Below, one piece after another: positions 5,676 through 32,466 of a DNA stretch of 64,000 bases. The position numbers and the translations under genes were made by a program. Each line of letters begins with the position of its first letter. Within the stretch, counting starts at the first letter, position 1. The notes beneath the pieces are model-generated. The model did no database searches. It saw only the letters and a list, made by a program, of their open reading frames with translations, and was not told where the DNA came from. This DNA is from Polyangiales bacterium (GTDB lineage: Bacteria > Myxococcota_A > Polyangia > Polyangiales > Ga0077539): contig JAXLYG010000016.1 in NCBI GenBank assembly GCA_046351535.1, positions 128,670-192,669 on the forward strand, read 5' to 3'.

Positions 5676-8315
5676 GTGAGCACCGACGCCAACAACGACT
5701 CGCAGGACCTCCACCCCGGCGACGAGTTACCCGGCGCACACCGCGTCGACGAGGAGCTCGCCAACGGCCGCCTCGGCGCGGCCTACGTCGTCGTCAACAG
5801 CGACGGCGAGCGACGCGTCGGGAGCGTCCTTCACCGCGAGCACGTGGCCGATCTGGGTGAGTGGTTCCTCGCGGCGGCCGTGCTGCGACAGGGGATCGTG
5901 CACCCGCACATGCCCCGCACCTTCGCCACCGGAACGCTCCCCGATGGACGTCCCGTCGAGATCACGGAGCTCCTCGAAGGCGAGAGTCTTCGCGAGGCGG
6001 TCATCAACCGCACGGTGCCGCTCCCGCTCGCCGTCGTGGCGCGGGTGATCCGCGAGGTGGCCGACGCGCTCGACGATCTGCACAAGCGCACGCCGCCCAT
6101 CGTTCACCGCGCGCTCACGCCCGACAACGTGCTGCTGACCGCGCCCGACGGGCTCGTGAAGCTCCTCGGCGTGGGCGAAGCCGACAGGCCGAGAATCGAC
6201 GCGGTTCGCTCGGCCTACCAGTCACCCGAAGCGCTCGCGGACATCGCGTCGCTCACGCCGCGCGCCGACGTGTTCGTGCTCGCGTCGCTCGCGTTCGAAG
6301 CGCTCACCGGACGCCACGCCTTCTCGGGGACCGCCGACGAGGTGCTCGGATCGCTGCACTCCGGCGCGCGTCCGAGCGTGCGCGCGCTGCGCGACGAGGT
6401 CCCCGCGGCGGCCGACGAGGTGCTCCATCGGTGCTGGGAGCTCTCGCCCGAGAAGCGCCCCGCGACGGCTGGAGAGGCCGCGAAGGCGCTCAGCGCGGCG
6501 CTCGGCGTGATCGACACGGGCGAGGTCTCGATCCCCGACGAGCCCACGGGGAGCGTCGCGGCCCCCTTGCGCGTCGTGCGTCGTCGCAACGCGCTCCTCG
6601 GGCCCACGGTCGAGACCACGCGGCCCGACGTGAAAGACCCGCGGAGCTTCCTCGAGAACGTCGAGCGCACGGAGGTCTCGACGCCCGCCGTTCCCGCGCC
6701 TGCGCCGGTGATTCCGCGCGCCGACGCCGCGCCGCGCGTCGAGAACGTCCCGAAGACCGAGGCGTCACCGAAGACCGAAGCGTCACCGAAGACCGAGAGC
6801 GCACCCCGCCCCGAGCCCGCGTCTCGCGCCGAACCCGTGTCTCGCGCGGAGGCAGCCCCGCGCGCCGAGCCCGTGGCGAAGACCACGTCGGAGCGTCCTC
6901 CGCCGAAGGGTGCGGTGCCTCGCTCGGGGGCCGTGCTCCGCGCGTCGAAGGGAGCCGTGAGCGCCGCGCACCCGAGCGCCGCGGAGACCTCGTCGGAGCC
7001 CACCGATCGCAACGTCGACACCTTGACGGCGAAGCCCGCGGCGACGCTCGTGACGCCTCCGCGCGACGAGGCGAAGGGCCCGCGCAGAGAGTCCGCGCGA
7101 ACGCTCCACGACACGCTCGACACCTCGGCGCCCGTCGATGCGCCCGCGCCCGTGGCGTCGCCCGCGTCGCCCTTCTCCGACGATCCGCGCGCGACGCTCC
7201 AAACCACGCTCGAAGGCGTCGGAGCCATCCCCGCACCCGCGCCCGAGGAGCCCGCGCCGAAGCCCGTTCAAGCCGCGCAATCGCCCTTCAGCGCGCCGAC
7301 CATCCCGACGATGCAGGGCCTCGCGGCGCCGCCGCAGAGCGATGCCGACGAGCGCCCCACGCCGGGCTCCTCGACGCTCAAGGGAGTCCCCGCGGCGCAG
7401 CCTCCCGCGGAGGCTCCGTCACCCGTCGCGCCCGCGGCCTCCCACGCGCAGCCGCAGCGCGCCGAGAGCCCCGCGACGCTGCCGCTGCCGCACTCGCCCG
7501 ACACGCTCCGCTCCCCGCGCAGGGCTACGCGCAGGGCGCACCGTTCGCGAGCGCGCCGCAGCCCGCGCAGCACCCGTCGCCCTCACCGAGGCCCGCGCCG
7601 TATCCGCTCCCGCAGAGCGCGCGCTTCGCAGAGCGCACAGGCGCAGTACGCGCCGCAGCCGCAGGCCGCACACGCGCAGCCGCAACAGCCGCAGAGCGCA
7701 CACGCGCAGCCGCAGGTCGCGCAGCCCGCACACGCGCAGCCGCAGGTCGCGCAACCGCAGGTCGCGCAGCCGCAGGTCGCGCAGCCCGCACACGCGAGCG
7801 CCGCCTACGCCCAGGCAGCGCTCGCGCAGCCGCAACACGCGCAGGCGTCGCTCCTCCAGAGCACGCCCGCGCCGGGAGGCATCCCCGAGGCGAGGCCCAT
7901 CACGCGGCGCGTCGCGCACGCGGTGAGGGCGCCGGACGAGGTGGCCTTTCCCGACGAGCCCACGGGGGCCTACGACCTCGAGTCGGCGAAGCCCTCGCCG
8001 TGGCGCTCTCCGTGGGTCATCGCGTCGATCTTTCTCGCCAACGCGATCGTGATCGTGGGCGTCGCGCACGCCATCGCGCTCGCCGCGTCGCGCGAGCCGA
8101 TGATCCGCGTGGTGCAGGGCCCCGCGCCCGTGTGCGCCCCGTGTGCCGCGTGTCCCATCGAGCGCGCCGTCGCGCCGACGCCTCCGCCCGCGCCGCAGCA
8201 GCAGGTGCTCACGCAGCGCGTGGAGGCGCCGTCACGGCCGACGTCCTCGGCGCCGCGACGCGCCGGCGGGATCATCCGTGAGGTGCCCGCGTTTGGCGCG
8301 CCGCGACGTCGGTGA
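5676..8315 (+). CDS. Hanks-type kinase-like protein lacking catalytic residues (predicted pseudokinase), with a Pro/Ala/Gln-rich linker and a C-terminal TM helix
   Basis: The kinase-fold landmarks are present but degenerate. RRVGSVL replaces VAIK. IVHRALTPDN replaces HRDLKPxN (6105-6113 encode H-R-A). LGVGEA replaces DFG (6168-6176). YQSPEAL replaces APE. TM helix WVIASIFLANAIVIVGVAHAIALAA. GTG start. Confidence 0.85.
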   Translation: MSTDANNDSQDLHPGDELPGAHRVDEELANGRLGAAYVVVNSDGERRVGSVLHREHVADLGEWFLAAAVLRQGIVHPHMPRTFATGTLPDGRPVEITELLEGESLREAVINRTVPLPLAVVARVIREVADALDDLHKRTPPIVHRALTPDNVLLTAPDGLVKLLGVGEADRPRIDAVRSAYQSPEALADIASLTPRADVFVLASLAFEALTGRHAFSGTADEVLGSLHSGARPSVRALRDEVPAAADEVLHRCWELSPEKRPATAGEAAKALSAALGVIDTGEVSIPDEPTGSVAAPLRVVRRRNALLGPTVETTRPDVKDPRSFLENVERTEVSTPAVPAPAPVIPRADAAPRVENVPKTEASPKTEASPKTESAPRPEPASRAEPVSRAEAAPRAEPVAKTTSERPPPKGAVPRSGAVLRASKGAVSAAHPSAAETSSEPTDRNVDTLTAKPAATLVTPPRDEAKGPRRESARTLHDTLDTSAPVDAPAPVASPASPFSDDPRATLQTTLEGVGAIPAPAPEEPAPKPVQAAQSPFSAPTIPTMQGLAAPPQSDADERPTPGSSTLKGVPAAQPPAEAPSPVAPAASHAQPQRAESPATLPLPHSPDTLRSPRRATRRAHRSRARRSPRSTRRPHRGPRRIRSRRARASQSAQAQYAPQPQAAHAQPQQPQSAHAQPQVAQPAHAQPQVAQPQVAQPQVAQPAHASAAYAQAALAQPQHAQASLLQSTPAPGGIPEARPITRRVAHAVRAPDEVAFPDEPTGAYDLESAKPSPWRSPWVIASIFLANAIVIVGVAHAIALAASREPMIRVVQGPAPVCAPCAACPIERAVAPTPPPAPQQQVLTQRVEAPSRPTSSAPRRAGGIIREVPAFGAPRRR
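6750..6803 (+). repeat. 18-nt in-frame tandem repeat x3 (PKTEAS PKTEAS PKTESA) inside the pseudokinase linker
   Basis: ccgaagaccgaggcgtca / ccgaagaccgaagcgtca / ccgaagaccgagagcgca, read directly. Confidence 0.9.
7650..7800 (+). repeat. degenerate in-frame tandem repeats encoding (AHA)QPQ(V/S)AQP units
   Basis: Blocks of gcacacgcgcagccgcaggtcgcgcagccc recur at ~7668, 7698 and 7728, plus shorter ccgcaggtcgcgca units. Confidence 0.8.
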
Positions 8316-29357: not shown

Positions 29358-29762
29358 ATGACCCGCGGACACGCTCGCTCCCTCATGACCACCCCCGTCA
29401 CCTCGGTCTCGGCGGAGGCAACCCTCACCGAGATCGCGGACCTCTTCGCCACGCAGAGCATCAGCGGCGTGCCCGTCATCGACGGCGAGCAGCACGTCGT
29501 GGGCTTCGTGAGCGACACCGACATCATCAACGCGATGCTCGACTCGCGCGGCGCGCAGACGTCGGCCTTCGACCTCATGTCGGCCCCCGTGGTCACCGTC
29601 GACGAGTTCGACACGGCCGAAGACGTCATGCGCGTGATGCGCGAGAACAACATCCACCACGTCCCCGTGGTGCGAAACCGCAAGCTCGTGGGCATCGTCA
29701 CGCCGACCGACGTGATCCGCTACCTCGTCACCGTGCTCCCGCCGCCGTCGCAGGTGAGCTGA
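29358..29762 (+). CDS. CBS-domain pair protein
   Basis: 134 aa. Two CBS units: MTTPVTSVSAEATLTEIADLFATQSISGVPVID...VGFVSDTDII and MSAPVVTVDEFDTAEDVMRVMRENNIHHVPVV...VGIVTPTDVI. Confidence 0.85.
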   Translation: MTRGHARSLMTTPVTSVSAEATLTEIADLFATQSISGVPVIDGEQHVVGFVSDTDIINAMLDSRGAQTSAFDLMSAPVVTVDEFDTAEDVMRVMRENNIHHVPVVRNRKLVGIVTPTDVIRYLVTVLPPPSQVS

Positions 29763-29862
29763 GCGCCCCCTCCCCGTCCCTCCCCCGCGAAGCGGGGGAG
29801 GGTGCCCGTTGGTAGCTGCCATGCCCTCACCCCGCCCTCTCCCACCAGAGGTGGGAGAGGGA

Positions 29863-29914
29863 GTCCGCGAGCGACGCGCGTAGGTCCGCGAGCGACGCGC
29901 GTAGGTCCGCGACG
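29863..29914. repeat. 21-nt tandem repeat (gtccgcgagcgacgcgcgtag) x2.5 in the left palindrome arm
   Basis: Read directly. The complement of this unit is amplified to ~5 copies in the right arm. Confidence 0.85.
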
Positions 29915-30368
29915 TTGCGAGGGTGGTTGGTGGCGCCGATCGGGCCATCGCATCGCGGCGGGGATCGCCTGGGGTTCGGCCCGCGGCGTTGCGAGGATGA
30001 TTGGTGGCGCCGATAGCGCCATCGCATCGCGGTTGCAGTCGCGCCCTCACCCCAGGCTACAACTTGAGTGACCCCGCCTTCGAGTCTGACCGCCATTCGG
30101 GGGTTGACGGCGCCAGACGCTTCCCGTCGCGCCTGGGGTTCGGCCCGCGTGAGAGGGACGCGCGTGACGCGCCCAGGGCTCGCCCCCCGAGGGATGTACG
30201 CGATCGGGGGGCTCGGCCTGGGCTTCATCAAGGCACGGATCACCGGTCTTCGACCGGTTCAGAAGGCATGGCGAGGCTCTCTCTGCTGAACCCTCGAAGA
30301 GGGTGATCCGTGCCTCGTCATAGCCCAGGCTGAGCCCCCGATCGTGTACATCCCTTGGGGGGCGAACC

Positions 30369-30476
30369 CTGGGCGCGTCACGCGCGTATCTCCCTGGGCG
30401 CGTCACGCGCGTATCTCCCTGCGCGTCGCGCGCGTCACGCGCGTATCTCCCTGGGCGCGTCACGCGCGTCCCTCTC
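30369..30476. repeat. 25-nt tandem repeat (ctgggcgcgtcacgcgcgtatctcc) ~4 copies, right arm only
   Basis: Units at 30369, 30394, 30419 (a 32-nt variant) and 30451. The left arm carries a single copy. Confidence 0.85.
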
Positions 30477-30671
30477 ACGCGGGCCGAACCCCAGGCGCGA
30501 CGGGAAGCGTCTGGCGCCGTCAACTCCCCAATGGCGGTCAGACGCCTTCGCGGGGTCGCATCCCATTGTTGATCGCACGTCACGCGCGATGACGTGACGA
30601 TGCGCCCACCTCAGGAGTCACCGCGATTTTCGCGATCGTGCGACAGCGCGCGACGTCGGATCGATCGAAGA

Positions 30672-32177
30672 CTACGACCCCACGAAGGTGGGGTCACGCC
30701 AGTGTAGCCTGGGGTGAGGGCGCGACTGCAACCGTTGCGCAATGGCCCGATCGGCGCCACAACCATCCTCGCAACGCCGCCCGAACTGCTGCGATCCTGC
30801 CGCGATCGATGGCGTCGGCGAGCACCTCGCGCGCGCTCGCGGACCCGCGACGTCCCACCTACGCGCGTCGCTCGCGGACCTACGCGCGGCTCGCGGACCC
30901 ATGCGCGTCGCTCGCGGACCTACGCGCGTCGCTCGCGGACCCGCGCGTCGCTCGCGGGCGCGTCGCTCGTAGGGTGGGAGAGGGCGGGGTGAGGGCATGG
31001 CAGTCGAAGGGCACCCTCCGCCGCTTCGCGGGGGAGGGACGGGGAGGGGGTCACCGACACGTCCGCCCGCGCAGGTGCGCGTCCCGCGGTCGCACGCGTC
31101 GCTGCGGCACTCGACGTCGCTCGCGCACGCGTCGCCGTCGGCCTTGCGCGCCGCGCAGCGCCCCGTCGCGCAGTAGAGCCCCGCGTTGCACTGAAAGCCC
31201 GCCGGGACGGTCATGTTCCCGCAGGTCGATCCCATCGTCCCGTCGCCGATGGAGGCGCACATCCCCGAGCGGCACACGAGGCGCGCGTAGGGATCACACA
31301 GGGTCATCGTCGCGGTGTTGCACGCCTCGCCCGCGGCGCGTCGCACGGTGATGGCCGTGCAGCGCATCGTCGTGGTGGCCGTGCACGCGGAGCCCTGCGC
31401 GCAGACCGTCGTCGCGCCGCACATCTCGCCCGCCGCCGTGGGGCGCTGACAGGTGCCCGCGAGCGAGCCTTCGGCGACCACGCACCCGAGCCCCGCGGCG
31501 CACTGGATGTCCTGCGCATACGCCGCGCCGATGATGTGCCCGCAGGGTCGTCCCTCGGCGCCCGCCTCGCCCGTCGCCACGCGCACGCACCGCGACGCGC
31601 CGCTCGAATCGGGGAAGCACTCCGCGCGCTGCCCCACGCTCTGCGGCGCGCACTCGTCGTTCACGCTGCACGCCTCGCCGATGCGCTTGCGGGCGCGGCA
31701 CATGCCGGGGCACGCGCTCATCCCCGTGGCCTGTCCGCGGTCGCACCAGCCGCCGCCCGCGCACTCCTCGTGGCGCATGCACGCAGCGCCCGCAGCGACG
31801 GCTCCCGCGAACACGTCGGGGCACAGCGAGCCGAGGTCGTGCTGCACGTCGCAGGTCGCGTTGATGCGCGCGATGCAGCGGTACGCCGCGGCGCCGTCGT
31901 AGCGCACCTTCGACTGACGGTTCGCGGCGAGGAGGTCGTCGAGCGATCCCCACCCGAGGAGCGAAGCGCCCACGCGCAGCGTCGTGCAGCGCGAGGCTTC
32001 GCCGAGGTACGCCCGCTGCGAGGCCACATCGGCGACGGTCACGGGACAGCGAAACAGCGCCGCGCACGCGGCCTGATGGGCCTGCGAGGCGAAGTCCTCG
32101 GGCGTGTCGATGGAGGGGGCGTCGTCACCCGAGCAGGCGACGACCATCGAGGCGAGCACAAACACCACGCGGCGCAT
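30672..32177 (-). CDS. secreted Cys-rich lipoprotein; the last ~125 codons are read-through into the palindromic repeat
   Basis: Lipobox MRRVVFVLASMVVAC at ATG 32177. About 40 Cys arranged in repeated C-x-C modules up to ...DACDRGTRTCAGGRV (~31055). From 31050 down to the stop at 30672 the frame runs through repeat DNA (PLPVPPPRSGGGCPS...RATRVGPRATRMGPRA). Confidence 0.7.
   Translation of the reverse strand: MRRVVFVLASMVVACSGDDAPSIDTPEDFASQAHQAACAALFRCPVTVADVASQRAYLGEASRCTTLRVGASLLGWGSLDDLLAANRQSKVRYDGAAAYRCIARINATCDVQHDLGSLCPDVFAGAVAAGAACMRHEECAGGGWCDRGQATGMSACPGMCRARKRIGEACSVNDECAPQSVGQRAECFPDSSGASRCVRVATGEAGAEGRPCGHIIGAAYAQDIQCAAGLGCVVAEGSLAGTCQRPTAAGEMCGATTVCAQGSACTATTTMRCTAITVRRAAGEACNTATMTLCDPYARLVCRSGMCASIGDGTMGSTCGNMTVPAGFQCNAGLYCATGRCAARKADGDACASDVECRSDACDRGTRTCAGGRVGDPLPVPPPRSGGGCPSTAMPSPRPLPPYERRARERRAGPRATRVGPRATRMGPRAARRSASDARRWDVAGPRARARCSPTPSIAAGSQQFGRRCEDGCGADRAIAQRLQSRPHPRLHWRDPTFVGS
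30860..30972. repeat. ~21-nt tandem repeat (cgcgtcgctcgcggacctacg and variants) ~5 copies in the right palindrome arm
   Basis: Read directly. It is the reverse complement of the 29863-29914 unit. Confidence 0.8.
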
Positions 32178-32466
32178 GGCGACGGAGTGTACGGGAACGC
32201 CCCACAGATCCGCGATCACATTGGAGGCCACTTTCGCTCCCTCGGAGAACGGCCACACGCGCCGACACGCGCTCCCTCGCCAGCGCGGGATGCCATGTCA
32301 CCCGGTGACACGACCTCCCCCGCCGCCTGGGGATGCCATGTCACCCGGTGACACGACCTCCCCCGCCGCCTGGGGATGCCGTGTCGTGCGCTGCGAGGCG
32401 CTCCCCCGGGGGCCCCGGGTGCCGTGAACGCGCGCTGCGACGAGCTCCCCTGCGCGTCGGGCGCCG

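Follow-up and report, generated by a model that had tools for sequence, protein, structure and literature searches.

The stretch of DNA analysed here, 64,000 nt from a Polyangiales bacterium (GenBank assembly GCA_046351535.1, contig JAXLYG010000016.1, positions 128,670 to 192,669; hereafter the window), contains at window positions 29766-31050 an imperfect foldback of 1,285 bp, wedged between a CBS-domain gene and a convergently oriented gene for a Cys-rich protein. Very probably this foldback is made up of three palindromic mobile elements, non-coding and non-autonomous, each nested in the next between the two convergent stop codons; a single sublineage of a Myxococcota population resembling Sandaracinaceae acquired it. 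The outermost element, T1, of about 162 nt, would have settled between stop codons that are otherwise 4 nt apart; a 643-nt element, M, would have entered the apex hairpin of T1; and a 461-nt element, which we call the core, would have landed in the loop of one of the two internal hairpins of M. With the direct repeats at the borders counted in, the lengths of the layers sum exactly (162 + 12 + 643 + 7 + 461 = 1,285). Each guest is itself palindromic and sits at or near the apex of a hairpin of its host, so the whole reads as one 1.29-kb imperfect palindrome. The observations behind this reading are insertion polymorphism, modular composition, direct repeats, empty sites, and turnover at one site among strains no more than 2% apart.

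The foldback and its dimensions

In a gapped alignment of the region with its own reverse complement, 896 of the 958 aligned columns are identical, and the apex falls at about 30266-30285. The outermost 30 nt pair perfectly (29766-29795 with 31021-31050), with a mismatch at the 31st position, and an inner block of 76 nt is likewise perfect (30103-30178 with 30449-30524); the long perfect blocks of the arms thus measure 76, 31 and 30 nt. Folded as single-stranded DNA, the 1,285 bp form one continuous hairpin with a minimum free energy of -669 kcal/mol. The genome has a G+C content of 71%. Shuffling the window 20 times gave perfect inverted repeats (within 1,500 nt) of 15-22 nt at the longest, as against the 76 nt observed, which places the palindrome far beyond chance; the foldback region is real and not a product of chance. 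Elsewhere in the 64 kb no local inverted repeat rises above the chance-level complementarity of 70-80%, and blast finds no second copy of the foldback in the rest of the window.

These measurements agree with a preliminary description of the same DNA, made from its letters alone, as regards the perfect outermost 30 nt, an inner perfect block (73 nt there, slightly longer here), an apex near 30270-30285, and tandem units present in unequal numbers on the two arms. The 21-nt unit is found 2.4 times on the left (29863-29912) and 5.0 times on the right (30857-30957), and the 25/32-nt unit once on the left and 3.2 times on the right (30373-30470). Two other statements of that description hold in part. 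The right arm does have about 139 nt without a left partner (30544-30682), taken there for an insert of some 140 nt, but this is actually the centre of M displaced by the off-centre core. The foldback does abut the native stop of the Cys-rich gene (TCA, 31051-31053), as was said of an element filling the convergent gap, but the open reading frame (ORF) in this assembly ends at 30672. Identity between the arms varies from layer to layer (0.91, 1.00, 0.90, 0.98 and 0.92).

Filled and empty alleles

Contigs of relatives are cited below by labels such as L001; those of clade B and the outgroup were fetched via homologues of the CBS protein. The comparison of the orthologous intergenic region, which the preliminary description had proposed, finds the flanks abutting without the element in MAG_1, in clade B and in the outgroup. 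In MAG_1, a metagenome-assembled genome (MAG) of Myxococcota (L001/L026, about 95% identical), window position 29764 is joined to 31051 with 2 nt between them, leaving two convergent stop codons 4 nt apart (TGA-GCCC-TCA). Empty contigs come from clade B (13), the outgroup (at least four) and clade A (two); the CBS protein of the outgroup is 85% identical and its spacer reads GCGCGCT, so that the distance from stop to stop in the empty alleles overall is 4-7 nt. Because clade B and the outgroup are empty, the empty state is ancestral. The filled state is found in the window and nine other contigs, all belonging to clades A and A' and 0-2% from the window. Against the empty TGA-GCCC-TCA, the filled site reads TGA-GCG-element-TCA in clade A and ...element-C-TTA in clade A'.

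The left junction (TGA GCG/CCCCCTCCCC) is present in nine independent short-read contigs, all of which end 8-45 nt into the element, and the right junction in the independent contigs L062 and L063. L062, in which it reads ...cggTGA/ccccctccc, shares its sequencing run with the filled L020. An exact look-up of a kinase of the window, as another route to the right junction, returned no record. All 11 short-read contigs at the filled site (L002-L004, L019-L021, L023-L025, L062, L063; MEGAHIT k127 and Logan k31 assemblies) break within 56 nt of the ends of the element.

Both alleles coexist in one community. In L060, a contig assembled at k=127, diagnostic bases of clade A are linked to the empty junction within 124 nt, and the activated-sludge sample behind L060 also yielded the filled L002. 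DRR046817 and DRR350542 are examples of activated-sludge samples with both alleles. L022 is a second empty allele of clade A; the suspicion that it is a chimeric k=31 contig was dropped, since L060 shows that empty alleles of clade A are real. Strains that are 98-99% identical across the flanks thus lack the element, which is a precise, strain-variable and lineage-specific insertion.

The outer element and its family

Removal of M together with one copy of the 12-nt repeat that flanks it leaves a perfect foldback of 162 nt (-111 kcal/mol, z=-22.7), the size of ordinary T1 copies. The 25-nt terminal hairpin of T1, CCCTCCCCCGC-GAA-GCGGGGGAGGG, lies within a hairpin of 49 nt, and the hairpin-containing termini are about 37-42 nt long. 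The terminal 24-mer occurs at seven loci in GTDB representative genomes, four of them contigs of MAG_1 and the others in MAGs of Thermoanaerobaculia and Holophagales, and at 12 JGI metagenome loci, all with the Acidobacteriota-type variant. Scans of viral contigs and of plasmids returned nothing. A look for reciprocal empty sites found no other element-bearing contig of MAG_1 syntenic with the window. Complete copies are compact, non-coding foldbacks of 82-371 nt with terminal inverted repeats (TIRs) of 37-55 nt and variable centres; the hairpin unit itself occurs singly (L008 and clade A') and as inverted doublets (L006, L010, L033-L043). The 234-nt copy L006 has arms 99% and 94% identical to the outer arms of the window, and the two have in common the left signature GTTGGTAG and the right signature TCTTCGA; since these signatures are arm-specific, the pair of arms is older than either of these copies.

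The first 37 nt of the terminus differ at only one or two positions between Myxococcota (window, L006, L010) and Acidobacteriota (L005, L007, L009, L033-L044), in a set of copies that was collected by the exact 24-mer and is therefore biased toward similar termini. A terminus so nearly identical in two phyla appears to imply horizontal spread of the family. The repeat sequence has no match in the searched literature, and judged by sequence the T1 termini seem to define a previously undescribed repeat family of Myxococcota and Acidobacteriota.

In eight of about 16 distinct copies the left end of T1 is 1-3 nt past the stop codon of a long ORF, which suggests a directional preference for gene ends, and L010, like the window, has T1 wedged between two convergent stops. 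The stop-adjacent copies are L005, L008, L010, L011, L037, L040, L043 and the one at window 29766; the right end is not always near a gene. The copy in L010 (MAG_1), 371 nt long, has a non-palindromic interior in which, at L010:3215-3290, a 22-nt unit, GCGGCGCTCACGACCGCTGCCC, stands three times in tandem, and this interior indicates that T1 termini can bracket unrelated cargo, which also forms tandem arrays. Half-elements with one terminus and no partner occur at L036:~6040-6105 and in L044 (JGI Ga0062379 / Ga0209682). They were considered as an autonomous, transposase-carrying copy and rejected, as the half-element abuts what looks by eye like adenylation (AMP-binding) domain sequence and has no partner end.

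The middle element

M (29862-30972), with the core taken out, is a 643-nt foldback in which 470 of 507 aligned positions are complementary. It is placed at the apex hairpin of T1 with a 12-nt direct repeat on both sides, and its ends are made of the 21-nt tandem unit. In GTDB representative genomes this exact unit has no match, so it was probably amplified locally. Two paralogues of M are known, L018 (86%) and L045 (80.5%); the latter, at L045:2286-2439 on contig 998 of MAG_1, is an intergenic, single-arm and non-palindromic M-type module that includes the duplication of about 74 nt, and the identity refers to window 29909-30055. A hairpin of the form GACCCC...GGGGTC was entertained as an independent family of repetitive extragenic palindromic (REP) sequences and rejected, as it is present only inside M-type modules.

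The core and its insertion into a hairpin loop

The core is flanked by a 7-bp direct repeat that breaks the mirror symmetry of the foldback; its edges read ...GTGACCCC GCCTTCG a GTCTGACCGCC...GGCGGTCAGAC GCCTTCG CGGGGTC.... When the core and one copy of the repeat are removed, a perfect hairpin, GACCCCGC-CTTC-GCGGGGTC, is restored, the twin of hairpin B of M (Table 1). In L018, the MAG_1 paralogue of the surrounding block, the same hairpin is uninterrupted and colinear on both sides, with a compensatory change from A.T to G.C in its stem. [quoted passage not shown] The segment that contains it (30072-30555) folds as RNA with z=-32.7.

A copy of the core with other flanks occurs in the Sandaracinaceae MAG contig L017, 97% identical overall and 100% identical over 95 nt to the right arm in the window; it covers the left arm, the apex and the first 40 nt or so of the right arm. 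An ORF of 178 aa runs across the core and has no homologue among 5.8 billion proteins, and there is no credible ORF in the core. The 13-bp palindrome GCGCGT(C/G)ACGCGC (GCGCGTSACGCGC) occurs five times, only inside the core, as against 0.31 expected in the window; four copies stand at a spacing of 25-32 nt in the right arm (30373-30467) and one in the left (30160-30172). They may be an array for protein binding, or simply the repeat unit.

Nesting at other sites

Clade A', which differs from the window by 2%, has this site occupied in another way: the 49-nt T1 hairpin is split at its GAA loop by another TIR element, X. The ends of X read (GCG)CTCGCCATTCGTC..., a direct duplication covers the loop region (3-9 bp, depending on the TIR start chosen), and the TIRs of X and of the core have the 9-mer CGCCATTCG in common. 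X (CTCGCCATTCGTCAGATCTGTCGCGCA...) is seen in L019:4379-4423, L023 and L063:1267-1323 (SRR33769815, SRR33769816), and the contigs break within it. Clade A' also has TAA instead of TGA as the stop of the Cys-rich gene, with one extra C between element and stop.

The core copy of L017 has itself been invaded. At L017:427-2146 (CAZEAA010000713.1, an uncultured Sandaracinaceae MAG) a group II intron begins at L017 position 680, 10 nt 3' of the apex stem of the core, at a place corresponding to window 30324/30325; the contig ends inside the intron. It starts with GTGCG, scores 108 bits with Rfam group-II-D1D4-3, and codes for a reverse transcriptase (RT)/maturase (Pfam RVT_1; TIGR04416 at 360 bits). 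Its placement appears to fit that typical of class C introns, whose insertion points lie downstream of terminators or of inverted repeats of another kind (PMC1702495). The window has neither ribozyme domains of a group II intron nor an RT/maturase ORF.

Alternative explanations

The preliminary description had offered three readings of the foldback, and the first of them, a recent inverted duplication, is contradicted by the comparisons. In its explicit form it would be a single snap-back or template-switch duplication of a mosaic arm of about 640 nt, followed by slippage and one 139-nt indel. It would explain the overall arm complementarity of 94%, the perfect blocks of 76, 31 and 30 nt, the differences in tandem copy number, which are the change expected after duplication, and the two arm mismatches of the core, which are private to the left arm in the window. 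Yet the outer arms carry left- and right-specific signatures common to L006 and L011, arm identity is uneven by layer (0.90-1.00), and direct repeats of 7 and 12 nt stand exactly where mirror symmetry should hold; moreover, the layers exist separately (L006, L018, L045, L017), and L018 preserves the uninterrupted target of the core. We regard such a duplication as very improbable. An artefact of the source assembly, whether from a chimeric read folded back on itself or from a repeat that was collapsed or expanded, is scarcely credible. In its favour, the full continuity of T1, M and core is found in one assembly only, short-read contigs end at the termini, and 16 nt from the element that one assembly carries a 1-nt deletion private to it. 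Yet independent samples reproduce both junctions exactly. The flanks are not the source of the inserted sequence, its arms differ by indels and substitutions, unlike those of perfect artefactual foldbacks, and other assemblies contain the T1 arms, the M modules and the core including its apex.

The second reading, a foldback-type non-autonomous element, stands as regards the precise, strain-variable insertion and the dispersed modules, and fails in that there are three nested elements and not one. The same description had weighed whether the modules are just ordinary REP copies, dispersed and nowhere else in mirrored order; they are indeed dispersed, but mirrored copies do occur at other places (L006, L010 and the 12 metagenome loci). 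Its third reading, a selected structure, would make a host function the main point and mobile ancestry incidental: a bidirectional transcription block or insulator, a stabiliser of mRNA 3' ends, or a protein-binding array. The association of T1 copies with gene 3' ends and the position of L010 and the window copy between convergent stops are in keeping with it, as are one Acidobacteriota copy that has a hairpin with a T-run in its loop, the confinement of the fivefold 13-bp palindrome to the element, and the retention of the filled state across clades A and A', 2% diverged. The element is dispensable, however, being missing from strains 98-99% identical across the flanks, from clade B and from the outgroup; and its interior, wholly different from clade A to clade A' and from one family member to the next, speaks against selection for any given inner structure. 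No Rfam family matches it: at permissive thresholds the best match in the region scores 26 bits against a gathering score of 55, and at gathering thresholds the whole window yields only a tRNA. Neither terminal hairpin is followed by a T-run, and a scan for intrinsic terminators found no terminator-like site at the ends of the element. A host function of this kind is, on balance, an unlikely main explanation. Retron, CRISPR, integron attC and hairpin telomere were considered and dropped, as the surroundings hold no RT, cas or integrase gene and the architecture is not that of any of them.

Several points weigh against three nested elements. For none of the layers did a transposase or an autonomous parent with matching ends turn up; the ends that would bound a parent transposase gene are AGTCTGACCGCCATT... 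or CCCCCTCCCCGTCCC.... T1 has neither a target-site duplication nor a common flanking motif at any of its approximately 16 copies. M as a putative discrete mobile unit is represented only by L018 and L045, and for a target duplication the 12-nt repeat around it is rather long; this repeat might equally stem from a deletion, the ancestor having been like L006 and having had two apex hairpins. The continuity of T1, M and core is seen only in the assembly of the window itself. Finally, few copies were recovered, namely four contigs of MAG_1 with the T1 terminus, two with M-type modules (L018, L045), and one core copy in another MAG, so that the sample for judging target preference is small; these counts are lower bounds, since short-read assemblies break at these elements.

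Proposed mechanism and implications

The nesting of three elements would come about if hairpin loops in extruded or single-stranded DNA were preferred targets, palindromes thereby attracting further palindromic elements. The core, and probably X, would be moved by a transposase acting in trans and cutting with a stagger, for the core one of the DDE cut-and-paste type. T1 would move by a route that leaves no duplication, and an enzyme of the HUH/single-stranded DNA type, RAYT (the REP-associated tyrosine transposase) or TIRYT (PMC3733652), is a candidate. Later slippage, acting independently on each arm, would have made the tandem copy numbers unequal. Any effects on the flanking genes, such as a bidirectional block to transcription or protection of 3' ends, would be by-products.

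Bacterial chromosomes rarely hold long near-perfect palindromes, which are expected to be unstable; mismatches, bulges and off-centre nesting may lower the extrusion of hairpins sensitive to SbcCD. The locus offers a concrete origin for a giant bacterial palindrome, the stepwise nesting of small elements in hairpin loops, backed by orthologous and paralogous empty sites and by live polymorphism in wastewater communities. It also suggests that kilobase foldbacks are systematically lost from MAGs, and that they may give rise to spurious gene extensions, here a repeat-derived tail of 126 aa on a 501-aa gene call. A possible but doubtful extension is that hairpin loops are self-reinforcing traps (for T1, M, the core, X and the group II intron), by which palindromes accrete to kilobase foldbacks unseen in most MAGs, and that T1 is a cross-phylum family inserting without duplication 1-3 nt past stop codons. 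If true, the targeting mechanism of T1 would go beyond the descriptions of MITEs and of REPINs, the REP doublets that form hairpins, and might involve, for instance, an HUH/single-stranded DNA transposase or an enzyme that recognises gene ends.

Flanking genes and coordinates

The features of the locus are collected in Table 1. The neighbourhood is ordinary chromosome, with genes for UvrB, asparaginase II, Ser/Thr kinases, an FG-GAP protein and a MerR/TPR protein, and no mobility genes. In this assembly the Cys-rich ORF lacks one G between 31066 and 31067 (GTCCGC-CCGCG, as against GTCCGCGCCGCG in every other allele, clade A and L062 included). The frame is shifted five codons ahead of the native stop and 126 further codons are read into the element, in place of the native protein end ...CDRGTRTCAARTCR* of the other alleles. 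The read-through product, annotated in the source assembly as the 501-aa protein P0046, is private to that assembly, and the missing G is either a strain mutation or an assembly error. Apart from this one, all indels that distinguish the window from L060 fall between genes. One of them, at window 32287-32330 upstream of the Cys-rich gene, is a 43-nt insertion relative to the near-identical L060, bounded by a 12-nt direct repeat, GGGATGCCATGT, and holding a small hairpin, GTCACCCGGTGAC.

Table 1. Features of the foldback locus in window coordinates.
Feature	Position	Strand	Details	Comparison
CBS-domain gene	29358-29762	+	134 aa; stop TGA 29760-29762	Pfam PF00571, E=5e-33 (translation)
Spacer GCG	29763-29765		3 nt, CBS stop to element	GCCC in empty alleles, GCGCGCT in outgroup
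T1 left arm	29766-29861		Outer stem 29766-29777; terminal hairpin 29778-29802; signature GTTGGTAG 29808-29815; apex hairpin 29835-29861	99% identical to L006 left arm
12-nt direct repeat, copy 1	29850-29861		GGTGGGAGAGGG; flanks M	
M left arm	29862-30075		21-nt array 29863-29912; tandem duplication of ~74 nt 29904-30032; left half of hairpin A from 30070	Paralogues L018, L045
Target-site duplication, copy 1	30076-30082		GCCTTCG, 7 bp	
Core	30083-30543		461-nt MITE-like foldback, apex ~30266-30285; 27-nt TIRs GTCTGACCGCCATT... 30084-30110 and 30517-30543 (25/27 matching); 25/32-nt tandem array 30373-30470 with 13-bp palindrome GCGCGTCACGCGC x4	97% copy in L017
Target-site duplication, copy 2	30544-30550		GCCTTCG, 7 bp	Hairpin intact at paralogous L018 site
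M centre	30551-30695		Right half of hairpin A (30550-30557, overlapping the repeat copy); ~115 nt unique sequence; hairpin B	
Hairpin B	30676-30695		GACCCCAC-GAAG-GTGGGGTC	
M right arm	30696-30972		Includes 21-nt array 30857-30957 (x5)	
12-nt direct repeat, copy 2	30973-30984		GGTGGGAGAGGG	
T1 right arm	30985-31050		Signature TCGAA; terminal hairpin 31014-31038 (loop TTC); outer stem 31039-31050	Junction also in L062
Cys-rich secreted or lipoprotein-like gene	31051-32177	-	Native stop TCA 31051-31053, abutting the element	No Pfam match

Comparison with known systems

The element resembles MITEs in being non-coding, in having TIRs, in folding into a long hairpin, and in its dispersed copies and presence/absence polymorphism, and the 7-bp target-site duplication of the core is the classic MITE signature (as defined in PMC3184786). 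It differs in that T1 makes no target duplication, that no parent insertion sequence (IS) with matching TIRs was found among the loci covered, which stop short of whole genomes, and that both the 1,285-bp composite and the 461-nt core are at or beyond the usual size, which is mostly under 200 bp and at most about 400 bp (PMC3184786).

The similarity to REP sequences, REPINs and bacterial interspersed mosaic elements (BIMEs) lies in the G+C-rich extragenic hairpins, occurring as singles, as inverted doublets that fold into a larger hairpin, and as mosaics, in the bias to gene 3' ends and convergent pairs, and in serving as landing sites for mobile elements (PMC3733652, PMC3184786, PMC3337134). 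T1 has the form of a REP unit, a G+C-rich palindrome of 20-40 bp found singly and as inverted doublets. The tetranucleotide GTAG is present at 29812-29815, in every 21-nt unit and at the right end of M, but none directly borders the terminal hairpin; CTAC flanks hairpin B 5', a mirror image of the canonical arrangement of the REP tag. No RAYT-type gene lies in the neighbourhood of the element within the 64-kb window; the other loci were covered as stretches of 8 kb. Unlike REPINs, T1 is present in a handful of copies per MAG and not in hundreds, although these counts are lower bounds from a fragmented MAG, and its terminus occurs in two phyla, in contrast to the vertical inheritance described for REPINs. 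BIMEs, for their part, are tandem alternations and not concentric nests.

TIRtrons (Di Nocera et al. 2013, PMC3733652) are similar in their long TIRs, some of them self-complementary, and in being moderately abundant dispersed singles, dimers and clusters; the TIR families associated with TIRYT include a well-defined group in Acidobacteria (PMC3733652). Transposition of the HUH type would account for the missing target duplication of T1, but no TIRYT gene stands beside any T1 copy in the fetched loci, and the TIRtron motif GGGGWSAS appears only as GGGGTGAG in the Myxococcota-type arm, too short to count as evidence. The eukaryotic Foldback (FB) transposons offer an analogy only: they too have long inverted arms, tandem sub-repeats unequal between the arms and little or no coding capacity, but they belong to another domain of life, and here the arms come from the nesting of separate elements and not from the TIRs of one. 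The literature search found no FB-type descriptions outside eukaryotes. The stem-loop targeting of group IIC introns follows a logic of the hairpin as target that would also explain the nesting at this locus, and the L017 intron, 10 nt 3' of the core apex stem, would be in keeping with it; the window itself has no intron. REPs are known targets of IS elements, according to Tobes and Pareja (2006) as cited in PMC3184786. Taken together, these comparisons place the locus within the REP/MITE world: it is an unusually large, triple-nested member of it and not a new kind of system.

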